Shown piece by piece: positions 363 to 57,903 of a stretch of DNA of 64,000 bases. Both the position numbers and the translations under genes were made by a program. The notes under the pieces were generated by a model. The model was given only the letters and a program-made list of their open reading frames with translations. It was not told where the DNA came from and searched no databases. Every line of letters begins with the position of its first letter. Position 1 is the stretch's first letter. Origin of the DNA: Octopus sinensis (lineage: Eukaryota). The stretch is from NCBI RefSeq assembly GCF_006345805.1, contig NC_042998.1, positions 67,146,001-67,210,000 on the forward strand, given 5' to 3'.

Positions 363-1380
363 TATGCAAATCTATATACTCGCAAATATAGACAGAAATT
401 CACATACATTCGCAAAACTATATATGCATATCCATCCATACTTCCATAAATGCATCCATGAACGTAAACTAAAATGTTCCAAACTACCGTACTCTGTATA
501 TATATATATATACATATATACACACCACATGCGGACTGTATGGCGCGTAGTGTTAGACAATTTTGGCAATCTTAATAGATTGTATCTTACTTATCTACTC
601 CAAGGTATGGAACCAACTTCCTATTCACAGATTAAATCTCAAGTATGTGAATGCACTATAGTATGCTATAGTTTAGAATATTTTCTATACCATTACCAAC
701 GTCTCTAGAATCTTATGTTTCTTTTCAAAATAGCAAAGATAACTCGGGTCAATATATAGATTTTGTTTTATTGAAAGACTTAGGAGGCATAAAACATCAT
801 TTGTTCAAATTCTAAAGACACATAGAATATCTACAGAAGTTAACGAACATCAGAAGATGTCTGAGGATGTCTAAAATGTTAGGATGTCCATCAAATGCTT
901 ATACAATTAGCATATAAAACATAGTGGGACAGAATACAAAATATATCCCCCCAAAACCGATAATAGGTATTTCGTAAGATGTGTCTATCATGTATATATT
1001 ATAACTAAATAACAAATACCGTTATTTATAACAAAAAGGAAATATTTTCTCTCTCTTTCTTTCTCCCTCTTTCTTTCTCTCTCTCTCTCTTTAATTTCTC
1101 TCTCTCTCTCTCTCTTTATCTCTCTCTATATTTCTTTCTCATTTTCTCCCTCCCTTTCTCCCTTAAATACATTTTAGTCGGCCAAAAATTTCTTCAAGGC
1201 GGTGTCCCATCATGACTAGAGTCTAATGACTGAAACCATTGAAATTTACTGATATATATGTAAGCATATGCAAATCTATATACTCGCAAAAATAGGCAGA
1301 AATTCACATACATTCCCACAACTATATATGCATACACATCTATAGTTGCATACATGCAGCCATAAATATAAACTTAAATT
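360..1380 (+). repeat. Dispersed ~115-bp direct repeat (360-478 and 1264-1380)
   Basis: Both copies start gcatatgcaaatctatatactcgcaaa.atag.cagaaattcacatacattc and diverge distally. Confidence 0.8.
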
Positions 1381-1621
1381 TTGATGACGGATAAGTATGT
1401 TCATGTCCCTCTTCAATTTTTGAGAGCTCCATTGTCGTCCTTTTGCTCAATATTTACTCTAATATATCTGTGTGTGTGTGTGTGTGAGTATGTGTATGCG
1501 TGTGTGTGTGTGTGTAAGTACTGGAGTAAACACATAAGTGTGAAACAAGGTGGAAAAAGAGTACTCAAATACCAGAGGCAGAGTAATATGTTTTATAAGA
1601 AGCAGCAGAAATATCACAAAA

Positions 1622-1661
1622 ACTGTTACTCAGAGTTTCACGTTCCCGCTCATCGGACAGT
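1622..1661 (-). ncRNA. Minimal type I hammerhead ribozyme motif (duplicate at 1923-1962)
   Basis: Minus strand reads actgt CCGATGA gcg-ggaa-cgt GAAA ctc-t-gag TA acagt: stem I, core, stem II with GNRA loop, short stem III, UH site. U4 is replaced by C. Confidence 0.75.
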
Positions 1662-1679
1662 TTTTTAGAATCTAACAAA

Positions 1680-1721
1680 ACTGTCTGACGGTCGGGGACG
1701 TGAAATTCTGAGAGTAACAGT
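1680..1721 (+). ncRNA. Degenerate type I hammerhead motif (duplicate at 1982-2023)
   Basis: actgt CTGACGG tcggggacgt GAAA ttctgagag TA acagt. Core A9 is mutated and stem II weakened. Confidence 0.55.
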
Positions 1722-1754
1722 TTCTGTGATGTTTGTGCTGCTTTTAATAAAGTG

Positions 1755-1790
<36 letters not shown>

Positions 1791-2067
1791 GTGTGTGTGT
1801 GTGTGTGTGTGTGTGTAAGTACTGGAGTAAACACATAAGTGTGAAACAAGGTGGAAAAAGAGTACTCAAATACCAGAGGCAGAGTAATATGTTTTATAAG
1901 AAGCAGCAGAAATATCACAAAAACTGTTACTCAGAGTTTCACGTTCCCGCTCATCGGACAGTTTTGTTAGAATCTAACAAAACTGTCTGACGGTCGGGGA
2001 CGTGAAATTCTGAGAGTAACAGTTTCTGTGATGTTTGTGCTGCTTTTAATAAAGTGTATATATATAT

Positions 2068-2112
<45 letters not shown>

Positions 2113-2166
2113 ATGTATGTGCGTGTGTCTGTGTTTGTGTGCGTGTGTGTATAAAGTGTGTGTATA

Positions 2167-2375
2167 AAGTAGAACCTCGATTTTCAAACAACTCTGATCA
2201 CGAACAAATCGTTCATTATCGCCCCTCTTTCTCATATTCATTTAATACAGTAGGACCTCAGTTTAGGAACGCCTCTTATCACGAACAAATCCTGATTTAT
2301 ATATATATATATATATATATATACAAAGCACGATTAATTCGCGATCAGACTTGTTCGAAAACCGAGGAACTACTG
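2167..2375. mobile_element. pogo/Tigger-like MITE
   Basis: Terminal inverted repeats (a/c)agtagaacctcgattttcaaacaa...ttgttcgaaaaccgaggaactactg in a TA context, with a second left TIR copy at ~2249 (cagtaggacctc). Confidence 0.6.
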
Positions 2376-2394
2376 TGTATATATATATACACAC

Positions 2395-3728
2395 AGGAAG
2401 AAGTTGCTTAACTCAGCTCCTACAACACTATGACTGGGTGCTGAAACGAGTGCTCAACCACTCAAATGTGGAAGTCATATATCTCGACTTTGCAAAGGCC
2501 TTTGATAAAGTCGATCATGGAATGCTATGTCACAAACTGCGTGATCTTGGCATAGTTGGAAAATTGGGAGAAGGGCTTCATGACTTTCTGAAGGATAGAA
2601 ATCAGGTGGTAGTAGCTTCCACTAACACGCAAATAGTGAGCAGTGTTCCGCAGGGCACTGTTTTGGGACCACTACTGTTCATAATGGCCCTCTCAGACAT
2701 GCCCTCAGCCACGCAGAGAGCCACGATCACAAGTTATGCAGATGATACAAAAGTTTCACAGGCAATACAGAACCCTGAGACACTAAGCACCTGCAATGTG
2801 AGCTGGACAAAATATAAGTGGGCTGAAAAGAATAGCATGCAGTTCAATGCTGAAAAGTTTCAAGCTCTATGCAATCAACATGCAAAACTAAATGCAATAC
2901 CCAATAAATACACTGGACCTGGAGGGCCTGCATTCCCAGAGGCACAATCAGTGCGAGACCTGGGTATTTACATGAGTGATGATGCAAACTTTCATGTGCA
3001 TGTTGCTAAATTGGTAATGAAATGCAGGCGGCTGACCGGATGGATTCTTAGAACCTTCAGAACAAGAGACCAGGAAACCATGATGGTCCTCTGGAGGACA
3101 CTTGTCCTAAGCCAATTTGACTATTGCTCTCAGCTATGGTCACCATCCAGTGTCAAGTTAATCACAGAACTTGAGGCGATCCAACAAAGCTACACGAAGA
3201 AGATAGCCTCTGTGCAGCATATAAGCTATTGAGAAAGACTCAAGAGATTGAGACTCTATTCCTTAGAGCGTAGGCGAGACATATATGCCATAATATACAT
3301 ATGGAAGATCCCAGCAGGACTTGTCCCAAACTTTGGCATCGAGAGTTACACAAATGCCAGAACTGGGCGCCACCGCATAGTGCCAAGGACTCCAAATTTG
3401 CCATCAAGATGTAGGACAAGATACTGTGATAGCCTGGGCTTCCGAGGCGCACAGCTCTTCAATATCCTCCCGAAGAACCTAAGAGACCTGCATGGGGTGG
3501 ATGCAGATGTCTTTAAAATGAAACTGGATCTCTTCTTGTCAGGTATCCCAGATGAACCAACTTCACAGCAGGAGGTGCAGATGAGGGCAGCTGCATCGAA
3601 CTCTCTCATGCACCAAATGGCAATTGCTAAAAAGCATTCGTGAAGTAAAATCGTGTAGCAACACCAAATGGCGGTGCCCCAGCATGGCCACAGCTTGTGA
3701 GCTGAAATTAGATAAATAAATAAAAAAA
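2395..3728 (+). mobile_element. 5'-truncated CR1-group LINE (RT domain, C-terminus, 3' tail)
   Basis: Motifs GRSCLTQLL, YLDFAKAFDKVDH, VPQGTVLGPLLF, YADDTK, RDLGI, LYSLERRR. Ends in an (ATAA)n/A tail and starts abruptly after (TA)n. Confidence 0.93.
2396..3643 (+). pseudogene. LINE ORF2 reverse transcriptase remnant
   Basis: Track ORFs 2351-3232 and 3248-3643 are in the same frame, separated by a single TGA at 3230-3232 where W is expected (SY*ERLKRL). Confidence 0.9.
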
Positions 3729-3784
3729 ATGTTTTAAATATATATATAATTTCGCAATGTTGAACTGTTAATCGAGTTAATCGA

Positions 3785-3955
3785 TCCAAAAATGATTTTT
3801 CTATCTCCAATTTTACCTCTTAATCCTTTCTATATGAGACCGTTGACCCAAAATGTAAAATACTTTTCCATTCTTGACGAGCGTTAAACTAATAAACCTG
3901 TTTTTTGTTCCTACACCCGTCTTTGTCTATTGATTTCTGCAAATTTGAATTATAT
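3785..3955 (+). mobile_element. Penelope-type terminal-repeat-derived short element (family also at 12172-12375 -, 12925-13085 +, 45236-45440 +)
   Basis: Shared cctttct...gagcgttaaactaata...cacc.gtctt..tctt blocks ending at (TA)n. Confidence 0.6.
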
Positions 3956-3977
3956 ATATAAATATATTATAGCAAAA

Positions 3978-4017
3978 ACTGTCCGACGAACGGGAACGTG
4001 AAACTCAGAGTAACAGG
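3978..4017 (+). ncRNA. Minimal type I hammerhead motif, same family as 1622-1661
   Basis: ctgt CCGACGA acg-ggaa-cgt GAAA ctc-a-gag TA acag, followed by the same ...gctgcttttaaataaag tail. Confidence 0.75.
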
Positions 4018-4069
4018 TTTTGTTGAATTTTCTGCTGCTTTTAAATAAAGTATATATATATATATATAT

Positions 4070-4460
4070 ATTAATAATATAAGGGTAAATAATTATTAAT
4101 TGCAAAATCAACAATTATTTCCGGGTAGATTTTGGTATGAAAATATAAACATTATCGGTAGAAACCTTTTCAAAAAGTTATGCATATATATAAAGGGTAA
4201 GCAACAGGTTGCTTAGCCACATACCGAAAAGTAGACATAGCAGTCAAATACCGCTTATTTCTATTTTCTCCAAATATAACTCCGCATATAACATATACAT
4301 GTAAAACAGGATGAAAAATAACGAAAATAAAGTCTGCGGTCAGTTACGGACGCGTTTCTTGGTTAGAATTAAAAAGAAATCCATTCCCCAATCAGCATAA
4401 CATTTCTTTAGATAGATTTGCAATGTTAATTTACATACCTCTTGCTCCCTTTTTATTTTC
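4070..4460 (-). mobile_element. Penelope-type terminal repeat; its end is repeated inverted at 6826-6937
   Basis: 4070-4180 is the reverse complement of 6826-6937. A degenerate hammerhead lies at 4343-4401 on minus (gttatg CTGATTG...GAAA cgcg TC cgtaac). Confidence 0.6.
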
Positions 4461-4463
4461 ATA

Positions 4464-4496
<33 letters not shown>

Positions 4497-4500
<4 letters not shown>

Positions 4501-6750
4501 AAATTTATTAGAGACAAAACCACTATTTTGCAAAACAAACAAGGAAAGACTTAATCAATACATAAAATTTTAATAAATAGTCAAAAAAACCGCCACTACA
4601 ATCGTTTCTTGTCTTGATCGACAATCTTCAGGTGGACTTCCAATCTAAAAAATCAATATTTTAGAATATAAAAATAATAATTTTAAAATAATTAAAGTAT
4701 GAATGAAAAAATATAAGTATATAATCCATATATAACCTATATATAATCCATATATAATCAATATAAACAATATATAAACTAAAAAAAACCTATCAACAAT
4801 TAAATATAAAATATAAACTATAAAATATAAAATATAAAATATAAAACAAAACAAAAAAATAATAATAATATAATAAAAAAACTATATATACACCCATACA
4901 CATATACCTAATTATATATAACCATATCTAACTGCATACATAAATCACACACCTATATATATATCCCTATACATACACATAAAACGTCTAGGCAACTATA
5001 AATAAATAAAATAGCTAAATACTTCAACACAATACTTATTCATACCCCACACACACACACATACACCCACATTCACGCTCTAGAAAACGGACATCACTCA
5101 AAACTATGAACAGAGAAATGGAATAAATGGAATTAAAAATTATATTCACTTGGTAAAAACGAACACTACTTAAAAATTATGAATGAAACATGCAATAAAA
5201 CAACATACATCGCAAATAGACACAAATTACTACGAATTCCTTAATAAAACTATCATGATAAACCAAAAAACTCATAAAAACATATAATGATAAAATCTCC
5301 CTTTACTAAACTCTATAACAAACCTATATAGCAATCCCCCTAACCTAAACATTCACACACAAATACACACACGTAAACCACACACCCACGACATATACAA
5401 ATACCCACACCACTTACACATACCAATACATACATATAAACCTCAACATATACTCCAAAAACCCACTCAACCCCACACAGACAAATTCCATTCACAATTC
5501 CAAGCAACGCTAGTCCACCACCCGGTTATTCACGTGGCAAAACGAACACCACTCAAAAATTATGAATGAAACAATGTAATAAAACAACCAACATCGAAAA
5601 TAGACAAATTACCACGAATTCCCTAAAAAAACCATCACCTTAGCAGCTCTAACAAACAACTTGCAGTAAACCAAACCTATTCTCGATGCCTACCTCACTA
5701 CCACACTAATCCATTCACAATTCCAAGCAACGCTAGTCCACCACCCGGTTACAATTCCAACTCCACCCATTCATTCACAATTTCAACGACATTCGCCTCC
5801 ACAGCGCTACATATAAGCCTCAACATATACACCGGAGGAGATACACTTACACATCCGTGCGGATGGGTGAGAGTATACATTGAGTGTAGTGATGGGGCTC
5901 CCATTACTATACACATTTGTACCTGTGTGGTAGTCTCCATGTGTATATTCACGCACGGGTATAAATGCAGGGGGTACACGCGCACGTCATTTGCGTGTAC
6001 CCCCTCACATGTACATATGCATGCTATTTGGGCTCGATATATGCAACAATGTAATCGCGCCCGCATACATGCATATGGGCGAATTGCACAATCAAAAAAC
6101 GCACACGTGTGTGTGTGCGTTCCCTGGTTGTGCAATTCACCCATCTGGGTGTGAGTGGGTGTAAGCGTATCGCTGTTGATGTCGAGCTTGATACGTATGT
6201 ATATGAGTGTGTATTAGGGGGTTGTACGTATTAATTGTGTGCATGTGCTTCACGCACTTGCGTCCATGTATGGATGAATATATTGGGATTACTATGTGGG
6301 TGTAAATTGGGTATGGAGGGGGGAGTTTTGTCATTGTATGGGTGTGGGTTTCATTTGTGATGGTGGTTAGTTGGTGATTTTTAGTATGTCTGTATATTTG
6401 GGTTAGTTATGTATTATTCTAGTGTGTATAATTGTATACATAATTGGTGGTGTGAATGGGATTAAGCCCATTTTTGGGATGTATGTGTTTATTTATCCAT
6501 GTGGGGCGGGGGAGTGGCCGTTAGGTGTATATGCTGAGGCTCACATGCAATTCCAGATACAACGAATGAAGCGGGCACTTATATTTGTTATGGGTGTGTG
6601 TACTTTATTATAACAGACAATACCCGTTTTGCAAAATAGTGGTTTTGTCTCTAATAATATTTTATAATATTTTAGTATAAAATTGGATTTAATCCTAAAT
6701 CTGATTTTTTCCCTGTAAATTGGGATTTATTCCCTAAATTATTATTATTA
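4497..6750. mobile_element. Fold-back Penelope-derived element bounded by (TA)n
   Basis: ttattagagacaaaaccactattttgcaaaac (4505-4536) is exactly inverted at ~6626-6657. AC-rich to GT-rich strand switch near 5990, with internal duplications 5143-5242/5527-5622 and 5488-5529/5711-5750. Confidence 0.6.
4593..4635 (-). ncRNA. Type I hammerhead ribozyme with canonical core
   Basis: Minus strand: ccac CTGAAGA ttgtc-gatcaa-gacaa GAAA cgattg TA gtgg. Intact CUGANGA/GAAA/UH core, 5-bp stem II, near-palindromic stem III. Confidence 0.85.
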
Positions 6751-6757
6751 TTATATA

Positions 6758-6801
<44 letters not shown>

Positions 6802-6988
6802 ATATTATATATTATATATGAGAGAGAACTTCTTGAAAAGGTTCCTACCGATAATGGTTATATTTCCATACCGAAATCTACCCGGAAATAATTGTTGATT
6901 TTGAAATTAATAATTATTTACCCTTATATTATTAATAATGAAATCTTTCACTCTCGTATGACAATCCATAATTCTATTCCAGATGGCC

Positions 6989-7050
6989 AGATAACCGAAG
7001 AGATGGTGTGTGTATTTCCACCTCGGCATCGAAAACTCAGAATTTTATCT
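6989..7050 (+). ncRNA. Hammerhead-like motif in a Penelope-type repeat
   Basis: agataa CCGAAGA gatg...catc GAAA actcagaa TT ttatct. Stems I and II pair; stem III is degenerate. Confidence 0.55.
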
Positions 7051-7146
7051 TGGCTATTGAATAATTGTCACATACTATTTTACAGATAAATTTCCTCTAT
7101 TTACATAATATTGAGGTCTCTTTCATTTGTTATCTTACCGTTTTTA

Positions 7147-7196
<50 letters not shown>

Positions 7197-7214: not shown

Positions 7215-8330
7215 ATATATATATGTACATATGTAATGGATGAATGAATATCCTATGTTTACAGTTAACATGGAAAATTCAATAAACAGTTACCAGAGTA
7301 GCAAAATTCACACAAGTAACAAGGATATAGCGACCTATTCAAAGGTAGAAACTCCGGGTTAATGTGCAGTAATTTGTATAGTATAAGTAAATAAATGGAG
7401 TTGAACGCAGATGCTATTCAAATTCTTTTACTTTCGACATATGTTGCTAAGACAACAATGGGTTTATTCCAAAGGAATAAACGGTGGAAAATGCAATCTT
7501 CTCAAAGGAAAGAAAGAGAACCTAACTTAACAACAGGACGTTATAATAATTTCGATGACTGCATAAACAAAACGCTATTAAGTATTTGAAAAACCGTTAG
7601 TAGATCCGATGTCAAAGGCAGACCCCAGGAAGAGAAGGGGTAAAGAAATAATAAGTACAAATAAATAGGGATATATTGGTTGAAAAAATGTTCAAAGCTA
7701 TGGAAGTAGATTTCTCTATTGAAGTAATGTGCAAGTTTAACTAAATGTTCAAACTAAAAAGACTGCTATAAATCACTTTTATGAGCTAAAGGTATATTTC
7801 TGCCAGTGCTTACATTTGTAAGATCGCTCTATAAGTGTGTTAAGAAGGTGATTCTTAGAGAAGAGAATATGAAATAGTTCAGAGTTGCAAATGTTACAAA
7901 ACCCTTTCCCCTTGTCATATGGGAAAGATATGGACAGGATGAACCAATCTAACTTAAAATCCTTATTGTTGTCTTTAAGATGCCAAACCAATTTACTTAG
8001 CCCTGTGCTATAACGTTTACTGCTATCCCTAAATGAAGAATAATGATTGGAAATTTCTTTTAGATAACTGGGAAGAGGATGCGCAAATGTATAAGAAGAC
8101 ATCGGTACCGCAAGAAATTTTAATTGGTATATAGAATTCTTAATCTTAGAATTATTAGACGTACATTTAATTCTTTTGGGGCTATCCTCAGAGACCAAAA
8201 CTATGATTTTGTAACATTTACAACTATGAACTCCATTTCTATTAATTTTTTTCCACAGTTAGTAAATATTATGTTTAGCATATTCTTTTAATTTAACTCA
8301 TTAATAAAATAAATCACTATTTACTAACTA
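7215..8330 (-). mobile_element. Penelope-like element 3' part (GIY-YIG C-terminus plus downstream repeat)
   Basis: ORF 7779-8198: NHYSSFR..STGLSKLVWHLKD..W.IL..PY..CNICNSE..LLN..KCKH matches the PLE endonuclease C-terminal pattern. Flanked by (TA)n. Confidence 0.8.
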
Positions 8331-52282: not shown

Positions 52283-53215
52283 TCAGTTTTCTAAGTGTGG
52301 CTTTACAAAGAAGAAAAAAGGGTCAGTGATACCATCTTGCTGTCTGGACCATCTCTGTGTCAAAGTAGATGTGTGGGCTTGAATGAAGATGTAATAGTCA
52401 ATAAAAGTTTCTACGACACAGGGTAACACTTTTTCGTCCAACATTTGCACATAAAATTCACTGTTGAGTTGATGCCTGTATGAAGATGAAGAGTGACTTG
52501 AATCTATCAGATGCAACTGTGACCCACACCATAGTTGAAGCTGGCTTCTGACAGCATCAACGACTCCTACTACATTACTTGCAGAAAGCCTGTCATTCTT
52601 CCTGTTGGTAACTGCCCCCACGGTGAAGATCTCGTCCGGCCAGATCAACACTTTGTTAGCGGTGCGCTTCATCTCAGCTAACATGGTTTTAGCGCTGTCG
52701 AACCGTTTCCTATGGGAAGCTGCTGAAATCAACTGCCTGGATTGTTTCTTATATGCAGTTAGCTTTAAATCCATTTTGAAAACCCTGTGCATTGACGATT
52801 TTAAAACATCAAGGGATTTTGCAGTTTTTCTTGCACTCCAGCGGGAATTTCGCTTCATTCGCTTCTTCACAGCTTCAATAGTTTATTTGGCACAAATCTA
52901 TCGTTTCCTACTAGTAGTTGGCTTGTTAGAGATAGTAACGGTCTCCATATATCGTTTCCATATATTGAACAGTTTAACGACACACATTCAACTGTTTTGT
53001 TATATCCCTGTTGTTCACCCAGCTATTTTCAAAGCGACAATTTGATCATGCTTTGCTTTTGATGCCATGTTTGTTTACAAACCTGTTATAGAAGAATGAA
53101 ACAAGATATATGAACAAATGACATCTGCAAATAATTATGTAAAATTTAGATATTATCACCTAAACTGATATTCTTTAGGAGTTTTGAAATGTGTACATCT
53201 TTCTGGGACACTCTG
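52283..53215 (-). mobile_element. Tc1/mariner (DD37D/maT-like) relic, 5' TIR plus transposase N-terminal two-thirds
   Basis: TA|CAGAGTGTCCCAGAAAG TIR at 53215. ATG at 53068 (MASKAKHDQIVAL), HTH SARKTAKSLDV.KSSMHRVFKMDL, IWPDE.FTV..NRKNDR, LNSEFYVQML..VLP. Confidence 0.85.
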
Positions 53216-55720: not shown

Positions 55721-57903
55721 ACACATGCGCAGTTAGTCAGTTGCTTCCTGTTCAGCCAGAGTGGATGCGAGTCAACCAGCTCCGTCGAATTAAAGAAAAA
55801 AGACCAAAAACGGAAAGTTGTCGAGCTAAGTGATTTTGTTTATGGTGAGTTGGGCATAATTTATTGCGTGCCAATTATTATTTCAGTAAGTTGTGTCCAA
55901 CTCTGAGACAATTTCGCCTGCTCTCGGCGGCTGCCGTTTTTGTGTTCATTGAAAAAAAAAGAAAAAACAATGGAGGGGCGTGTCCTCGGAATTCAATACA
56001 GTTACTGTTAAAATTACCGTTGGCGGTAGCCAGTGCTGTGTTTGGGTTTGTTGAATTTATTCCCTTGTCAGACTACTTCGCAAGAAAATTATAAAAATAA
56101 GCCACTATTGGATTACCTTTCGGACCCATTGTTGTGGAGGTTGTGTTGCAGTTGCGGCGTTCCAGGTTCAACCCAGGCCGGGAGTACCGCAAGGCCAGAA
56201 TATTTTTGCTGTGTTTTTTCTGTTTATTAACTTTCTTTTGAACTTCATTTTAACCCCCTTTTGTTTTTTTCTTTATTGCGACATTCCGTTGATTTCTTCC
56301 CTTCTGTTGTGCTTTCTCCTTTTTGTTTTTTCAAAAATCTATCAAATTTTATTTGGACTTTTGAACTTTTCTTTTCTTCTTGCTTTTTGAGTTTAATTTG
56401 AATATATTTAAAAAAAACATGGTAATGAAAAATAACAAAATTTTGGAGAGGGAAATCATACCACCTAAAAAGTGGTTAAAAGACCGTGAAGATAGGACAG
56501 TGGTGTTGAGAACCTACTCCAAGGCACTCGACACCATCGCCCTATTCGAAAAGACGGCAATTGAAAAGGAGTTGGAAGAGTATTTGCCAACAATTAAATT
56601 CATTTCCAGGGGTGTCAAATATGCAACGGTGTGGTTGCTATTTGACACCCCTGAAGAGGCTTGCAAATTTGCTACCAAACCCCTGGAGGGTAAGGAAATC
56701 TTATTCCTGCCCACGTACAAAAAAAAGAAATTGATGAAAGCTTGGATTTGCGGACTGCCACCCGACATAGAACCCGAGTGGATAGAGGAGACTATCCGCC
56801 GGGGTCTGGGTGGCAGCGAAACTAAGCTCCTTAATGTAAAAGTTCTTCCTGCGGCTGCTTGGGTTGGGTCAAAAGAAATTTTGACCCTGTGGACCCAATC
56901 AGCCAATCTGGTTCTTCCAGATTTTTTGAAAATGGCCGGGTGCAGGTACCCGGTGATGCTTGAGGGTTGCCCCCCTAAGTGTCATCGGTGCTTGCAGTCC
57001 GGCCACATAAAGAAGAACTGTCCCCGGGAACAAAATAGGATCCCGGAACAGTTAAGTAAAACCCCTCTAGAAGAGGGAATAATAACGGCCGAGAAAGCAG
57101 AGGACTCCTCAAACAGAGGCCGAAAGAGGAAGGTGAGCAACAATGGGTGCTCACCAAAGGATAATAGGGATGAGGAGAAGGCAAATCTTCCGGCCACGGA
57201 GGAGGCGCACCCTCCCTCAGTTGAAAAGGAAAAAAAAAAGAAAAGAGGAAGAAAAACGGGACATTGCCTGCTGTCAGTGACATAGTACCGGAATGTCCCG
57301 GAACTACGTCGGTTGGGGTTGTGCCACCGACAAGAGAAGGAATACCGTTGGCGGGAACTGTGCCGCCAACGAAAGAATTATTGGTCCTCTTCTATAGAGG
57401 AGGTGAAATTGAAAAGGTGATGGAAGAGCACCACAAGGGAGCACCTTTAGCCTTCACACAGGACCCCGAATGGCCTCCGCAGGTAGCTGTGGAGGCCGTG
57501 GCGTTCGATGTGACGCTTGGGCTAAAGGAGCTCAATGAAGATTATAACTTGGTCCCGGGCGACGCTAACTCGGAACTTGATTACGTTCTGAGGGAGGCGT
57601 GGTTGATGGTGGAGGGCGCGGGCACAAGCTATTTCGAGGACGATATGTAATTATTGAACTGTTATTATTAGTAATGGACTGGTAAGTCCAAAAATTGAAA
57701 AATTGTAAGAGGTTTAATACCTCGTTTTGTGTTTATCTTTAAAAAGAACAATGTTTTAGAGAAGCGAAAGTCGGCGGGCGCTTTTTGTCTTCTCCCATCC
57801 TTATCATCTTTCTTTCATTATCATTCACTTCATTAATGTCCTCGTCCAGCCCGCAAAGCTAACTTAATCTGTGTACTGCCTTTATGGCAAATGTTTTGAA
57901 ATA
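55721..57903 (+). mobile_element. ORF1-only (HAL1-like) non-LTR retroelement with 15-bp TSD
   Basis: TSD aagtagcttgctaac at 55706-55720 and 57904-57918. ~700-nt 5' UTR, gag-like ORF, ~250-nt 3' UTR ending aataaa. No RT or endonuclease. Confidence 0.88.
56419..57650 (+). CDS. L1/Tx1-type ORF1 (RRM-like region plus CCHC zinc knuckle), split by a -1 frameshift near the A-run at 57230-57239
   Basis: CHRCLQSGHIKKNC (CX2CX4HX4C) preceded by YPVMLEGCPPK and WICGLPPDI. The downstream ORF 57264-57650 is in the -1 frame and open back through the A-run. Confidence 0.8.

Follow-up and report, generated by a model that had tools for sequence, protein, structure and literature searches.

Duplicated head-to-head hammerhead repeats in an Octopus sinensis microsatellite, a probable Penelope-like insertion remnant

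In the 64-kb stretch of Octopus sinensis DNA analyzed here (the window), two tandem units each carry a pair of inverted repeat arms with hammerhead motifs on opposite strands. Our reading, which we hold with good confidence, is that the arms are truncated copies of an abundant hammerhead-bearing repeat that lie head to head, that they are likely Penelope-like pLTR ends inserted in a microsatellite and likely duplicated later via flanking (TG)n, and that their motifs are inactive by prediction. The locus is likely ordinary insertion debris and not a circle-producing RNA cassette; it is ordinary in architecture and, judging from motif and folding models, probably inert.

Architecture of the duplicated inverted pair

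The DNA of the window is AT-rich with many microsatellites, and Tandem Repeats Finder reports a tandem array at 1462 to 2110 with a period of 301, 2.1 copies, and 96% matches. The non-microsatellite parts of unit 1 (1515 to 1760) and unit 2 (1816 to 2062) differ by a single inserted G in 247 nucleotides (0.4%), in agreement with the preliminary description, which had called the two units nearly identical; the stretches 1491 to 1664 and 1792 to 1965 match at 99%. Each unit contains an inverted pair of about 160 bp (1592 to 1751 in unit 1, 1893 to 2053 in unit 2), with an arm identity of 82 to 83%. The tandem 301-bp palindromic unit described earlier thus stands in its period and its inverted pair, but the unit as a whole is not a palindrome: a one-sided 3' extension (tail) of about 75 bp belongs to the minus arm only and is unmatched in both the plus arm and the solo copy described below, and ~56 bp is a (TA)n(TG)n spacer.

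To the left of unit 1 lies a (TG)n tract (1462 to 1515), where the long 3' end is inserted and which, from its sequence, is likely the left breakpoint of the duplication. The tail (1517 to 1591, minus strand) is followed by the minus arm (1592 to 1670, minus strand), a 5'-truncated pLTR-like end, by the head-to-head junction (1661 to 1680) centered on A1670, and by the plus arm (1671 to 1751, plus strand), an inverted partner with a decayed hammerhead and a short 3' end at (TA)n. The (TA)n(TG)n spacer between the units spans 1755 to 1816. Unit 2 has a tail of the same sequence (1818 to 1892, minus strand), a junction (1957 to 1987) formed by a perfect 15-bp palindrome flanking a single A at 1972, with one G more than the junction of unit 1, and a plus arm with a decayed hammerhead (1973 to 2053, plus strand), and it ends at the right (TA)n(TG)n tract (2058 to 2150). 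The three microsatellite tracts around the units are unlike in length and interruptions; a target-site duplication is not readable, since the flanks are microsatellite. A fifth family member, which had been placed near 3978 to 4017, is found as a solo copy on the plus strand (3975 to 4055, core at 3983) with a short 3' end at (TA)n, and a microsatellite lies at the end of all five family arms in the window. Both arms of the pair have subfamily letters in common that are absent from the solo copy. Because the arms are about 17% diverged and the units differ by only 0.4%, the palindrome predates the duplication, which is the order of events proposed earlier.

A short MITE-like inverted-repeat element centered on (TA)n lies next to the array at 2164 to 2376 (arms, 2247 to 2311 and 2312 to 2376; 77%), and a truncated LINE remnant is found on the plus strand at 2267 to 3643 (RVT_1 match, E 3e-15; stop at ~3230). 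Farther away, a 306-amino-acid frame on the plus strand (56365 to 57650) has a weak zinc-knuckle match (gag or ORF1-like) and is followed by a second open frame, and a decayed frame on the minus strand (52283 to 52882) has what we take to be the look of a Tc1/mariner transposase.

Hammerhead motifs and predicted folding

A type I descriptor with position 4 left open to C or U and position 9 to A or G was run on both strands of the 64 kb and gave five matches, at 1656 (minus), 1957 (minus), 3983 (plus), 6995 (plus), and 4631 (minus). A stricter descriptor gave four matches in the window versus none in each of 100 simulations, the controls being first-order Markov simulations of the window and not true shuffles; the motif is therefore not due to chance. 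The minus-strand CCGATGA hammerhead noticed earlier in each unit is recovered by the descriptor, at 1618 to 1665 in unit 1 (core at 1656, predicted cut between 1627 and 1626) and at 1920 to 1965 in unit 2 (core starting at 1957, predicted cut between 1928 and 1927), which puts the predicted cut sites 301 nucleotides apart. In these minus-strand motifs, stem I has 8 to 9 bp (9 bp in unit 1), the core is CCGAUGA with C for U at position 4 (U4C), stem II has 3 bp with a GGAA loop and a G.U closing pair at 10.1-11.1, and stem III is palindromic, with a self-duplex energy of −9.9 kcal/mol. The solo copy has the core CCGACGA and the stem II ACG-GGAA-CGU. Minus arms and solo copy share the minimal type I layout of stems I and II, GAAA, a UH cut site, and a palindromic stem III; however, the canonical core CUGANGA with G10.1-C11.1 is absent, U4C being found in the minus arms, the solo copy, and the family majority, all of which have A-U or G.U at the base of stem II, where the plus arms have U.U.

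The plus-strand CTGACGG, taken earlier for a second hammerhead in each unit, is not intact. In unit 1 this core (CUGACGG) lies at 1685 to 1691, and the plus-arm motifs have A9G, U.U at 10.1-11.1, and a 2-nucleotide insertion in stem III; neither passed the descriptor in the 64-kb scan, even with G9 permitted. A U.U at 10.1-11.1 is tolerated by some natural ribozymes (PMC3088659), so the decay of the plus arms is argued from the changes taken together. In the kind of motif scan proposed in the preliminary description, the descriptor matches the minus arms and the solo copy, and the Rfam models give no hammerhead, neither at gathering score in the window nor among 39 matches with E up to 10 at 1400 to 4300. 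Rfam microRNA matches were set aside, as they reflect hairpins and microsatellites only. The motifs are hammerhead-derived, although they depart from the canonical core. All four ribozyme motifs of the two units are altered or decayed, and the models predict that they are masked by mutual pairing and inactive.

The RNA of a single unit is predicted to fold into a long hairpin of −98.8 kcal/mol (z of −14.5 versus 200 shuffles). A forced hammerhead fold carries a penalty of 52.3 kcal/mol in one unit and 5.8 kcal/mol in a lone arm with its tail; in a two-unit minus transcript, the penalty reaches 100.6 kcal/mol for the dimer form and 100.9 kcal/mol for two monomers. Isolated motifs (five folded) do not exceed shuffles in stability (z of −0.36 to +0.55), which is as expected for minimal motifs and is uninformative. 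In either orientation, the antisense arm precedes each motif in the transcript, and in an RNA begun at the center of unit 2 it still comes before the second motif needed as dimer partner. Since the antisense arm is transcribed ahead of the motif on both strands, release of a 301-nucleotide unit is predicted to be blocked.

These folds bear on the idea, put forward in the preliminary description, of a retrozyme-like cassette whose minus transcript would cleave through a dimer hammerhead into a 301-nucleotide monomer and then form a circle (retrozymes and the dimer model are defined in PMC7229834, PMC6765202, and bioRxiv 10.64898/2026.07.22.740005). Similar to animal non-LTR retrozymes, the locus has a tandem unit of about 300 bp, low GC, and a single type I motif on the same strand of each unit; the 301-nucleotide spacing of the same-strand motifs is inside the 150- to 450-bp animal non-LTR range (PMC7229834), stem III is self-complementary, and family sequence occurs in 470 contigs of public run X15, which is guessed to be RNA. 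However, the dimer fold lies 100.6 kcal/mol above the minimum, so that an accessible ribozyme fold is not predicted in the multimer, the plus motifs are decayed, and the minus motifs combine U4C, which considerably reduces activity in vitro (PMC3088659), with G.U. In addition, eight of nine Xenopus dimers assayed failed to cleave (bioRxiv 10.64898/2026.07.22.740005), and none of the four runs examined below lists a go-back joint that leads from the end of a unit back to the start of a unit. Retrozymes have canonical cores, tandemly amplified families, and circles, whereas the array here is a single 301-bp dimer with a variant core, bounded by microsatellites, in which the unit holds its own antisense; there is no other such unit in the window, and the family occurs as dispersed single arms rather than as tandems or palindromes. 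We found no evidence for a retrozyme circle, and such a cassette is extremely unlikely.

The parent repeat family in public sequencing runs

From 24 listed public runs, four (X1, X15, X22, and X23) were aligned to unit 2 at 82% likeness; X15 is RNA by guess only. In X1, 4,289 contigs aligned to unit 2, 63 of them at least 99% alike, with a summed depth of 0.1 to 1.5 million at 1824 to 1967 (highest in the tail), 33,000 at 1968 to 1976, and 600 to 6,800 at 1977 to 2066. Long single X1 contigs have a depth of 25 to 55, and a crude depth ratio suggests a parent family of about ten thousand copies, summed contig depth being no copy number. The raw-read runs X22 and X23, at 1,934 million letters apiece, yielded five and two aligned reads, respectively, all below 99% likeness, and a high copy number is not shown there. 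The 3' end of the family is fixed near 1820, where loose ends of X1 contigs continue as (TA)n or (CA)n, and the 5' end lies at ~1965 to 1973, about 8 to 16 nucleotides upstream of the core, and the X1 loose ends at 1965 to 1968 have mixed letters (agreement, 0.47 to 0.48). Across the palindrome center, the X1 depth is 321,496 at 1959 to 1967 versus 2,439 at 1977 to 1985; less than 1% of the depth passes the center, and the parent family is therefore one-armed. X15 has the same one-armed profile as X1 (470 contigs). Palindrome frequency is measurable in the center bins only, because contigs covering the second arm of palindromes elsewhere would tend to align with the minus arm.

Other head-to-head copies exist; they are few and diverged, with variable breakpoints. 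Two of the eight listed X1 pieces cross the center; both are diverged and independent, with a depth of 25 to 30, and they carry 28 differences in 164 nucleotides and 9 differences plus 8 gaps in 92 nucleotides, respectively. The opposite-strand joints listed (three in X1 and two in X15) all have different breakpoints, with one contig apiece. At least two other center-spanning copies, together with a depth at 1977 to 1985 above that of single long contigs, could speak for a palindrome that is itself mobile, that is, a miniature inverted-repeat derivative with a fixed center mobilized in trans by a Penelope-like element. We consider this very improbable, because center-crossing depth is below 1% of arm depth, the breakpoints of the other inverted joints differ, and the shared 5' stop of single arms suffices to explain a recurring center.

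The tandem duplication could also be an artefact of assembly, in which two reads or haplotypes were joined via (TG)n, with the arms arising as in our preferred reading. The units differ by one base in a T run, both duplication breakpoints are in microsatellite, none of the aligned records covers a unit in full, and the listings contain no go-back joint between the units; however, interruptions and length differ among the three microsatellite tracts, and the absent joint has little weight, because contigs end at microsatellites and the raw runs cover the locus thinly. Such an artefact is unlikely, though less so than the mobile palindrome or the retrozyme-like cassette. A go-back joint from 1876 to 1855 (22 nucleotides) in X23 is unrelated to the duplication.

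The letters of unit 2 at 1950 and 1953 are unlike 99% and 95% of the X1 depth, respectively. The family's majority core, like that of the solo copy, is CCGACGA with A10.1-U11.1, indicating that the more canonical-looking letters at the locus are copy-specific changes. At position 4 (1956), no variant of at least 10% is listed in X1. The center of the stem III palindrome (1933) is split into ~36, 47, and 17% of X1 depth, and no variant is listed in X1 for the eight paired stem III positions. This pattern fits selection on a dimer helix; alternatively, strand-switch repair at a quasi-palindrome could be the source of the A/T part of the variation at 1933. This position is mixed in X1, but in X15, the putative RNA run, one letter accounts for ~91%, a skew that may reflect one dominant transcribed subfamily.

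We tentatively raise, as somewhat doubtful, the possibility that the combination of a U4C core and an A-U pair at the base of stem II is the working form of the parent family, namely, a hammerhead that is weakened and depends on a dimer or a protein, yet still cleaves, and that escapes CUGANGA descriptors and Rfam. A CCGA core is also found in a different hammerhead at 6995, so an entire Penelope-like lineage in the animal may use the CCGA variant. That second hammerhead (6984 to 7056, plus strand, within 6820 to 7148) has a CCGAAGA core; its stem II is long with a G-C base, and its stem III, nearly palindromic, resembles that of the main family. Its host repeat ends at (TA)n, and 6827 to 6937 is repeated inverted at 4069 to 4179 (95%). 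A further motif on the minus strand (4596 to 4642) has a canonical CUGAAGA core, a 5-bp stem II, and a self-complementary stem III, and its downstream end (4500 to 4536) is repeated inverted at 6626 to 6663.

Neither the parent family nor a U4C core in a Penelope-like element is described in the literature covered; outside that coverage, Lunse et al. reportedly described hammerhead variants of Penelope-like elements, which may already include U4C. A term search of the available text of PMC13282606 gave no mention of hammerhead or ribozyme. Exact-pattern scans gave no match in metagenomes or in viral contigs. Shorter-pattern matches at four genome and four metagenome loci were rejected as chance, since all eight are GC-rich microbial sequences without stem I or stem III.

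Probable Penelope-like origin and significance

Inverted pLTRs are mostly head to head, with junction palindromes read as traces of self-priming and a tail on one pLTR (Arkhipova et al. 2013, PMC3846280), and Penelope-like elements have an adjacent inverted 5'-truncated copy, a 30- to 40-bp tail, and a bias for microsatellites (Craig et al. 2021, PMC8557442). The locus resembles the pLTR pairs of endonuclease-bearing Penelope-like elements in its head-to-head 5'-truncated partners, junction palindrome, one-arm tail, microsatellite site, and hammerhead near the 3' end; the fixed 3' end, 5' truncation, and microsatellite targets are seen both in the X1 depth profile and loose ends and in the arms of the window. 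It differs from published pairs in that no ORF is left, the tail is longer (~75 versus 30 to 40 nucleotides), and the pair is tandemly duplicated. Its architecture is that of a Penelope-like pLTR pair, and the link to the minimal type I hammerheads of these elements drawn in the preliminary description holds, as the head-to-head pair, the one-sided tail, and the opposite-strand minimal hammerheads match published features. No RT or GIY-YIG frame is attached at the locus, and scans of sequence collections gave no homologous locus; the Penelope assignment therefore rests on RNA motif and architecture. Other Penelope-type debris lies at most 6 kb away.

A 159-amino-acid frame on the minus strand at 7779 to 8258, presumably Neptune-like, resembles the C-terminal GIY-YIG region of Penelope-like elements and is unlinked to the repeat. 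Its atlas look-alikes stand at 0.93 to 0.94, and in one set of them 23% of members have GIY-YIG; the frame has no Pfam match, and a search among longer proteins gave no homolog at E up to 0.001.

On the Penelope-like reading, the starting point is the high-copy family itself, with 3' ends in (TA)n or (CA)n and a stop about 8 to 16 nucleotides upstream of the core. The RT/GIY-YIG protein of an autonomous Penelope-like element would copy the 3'-terminal part of the element RNA through target-primed reverse transcription, and the cDNA would fold back at the short junction palindrome and prime itself, giving an inverted partner and a tail on one arm only. The ~17% divergence of the arms, which we read as neutral, includes C7 to U and A10.1 to G in the minus arm, and C4 to U, A9 to G, A10.1 to U, and the 2-nucleotide insertion in the plus arm; both C-to-T core changes sit at CpG, and the canonical look would be accidental. 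A recent DNA-level duplication of tail, palindrome, and (TA)n would have followed, with the flanking (TG)n tracts as sites of slippage or of unequal crossover. Read-through RNA is predicted to form an 80-bp imperfect duplex instead of hammerheads.

Metazoan minimal hammerheads number thousands of dispersed copies with low dimer activity, including opposite-strand pairs 100 to 700 bp apart (Cervera and de la Pena 2014, PMC4209133); such pairs are thus already known. The family shares with them short stems I and II, a palindromic stem III suited to dimers, dispersed single copies, and some opposite-strand pairs, but departs from their consensus (CUGANGAH, G10.1-C11.1; PMC4209133) in its CCGACGA core (U4C), A10.1-U11.1, and the lack of an extra base after A9. 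U4C lowers activity in vitro and still supports viroid infectivity (PMC3088659). C at position 4 is common to the family and to a natural viroid hammerhead variant cited in that paper; the viroid variant is rare, whereas here U4C prevails in a high-copy genomic repeat whose stems are minimal. One protein-assisted hammerhead was dispensable for insertion in vitro, with cleavage that depended on protein (PMC11167929).

The cassette itself is of minor weight: its both-strand hammerheads would be a by-product of Penelope-like insertion, subsequently masked by their own antisense. What interest remains lies in the very high-copy parent family, in which a U4C core is fixed and which goes unrecognized by Rfam. 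If this core cleaves, published hammerhead counts in such genomes would be large underestimates, and the catalytic core of minimal dimer ribozymes would be more tolerant than thought. If it does not, a retroelement with a crippled ribozyme would have reached a very high copy number, which bears on whether Penelope-like hammerheads are needed for transposition (compare PMC11167929).
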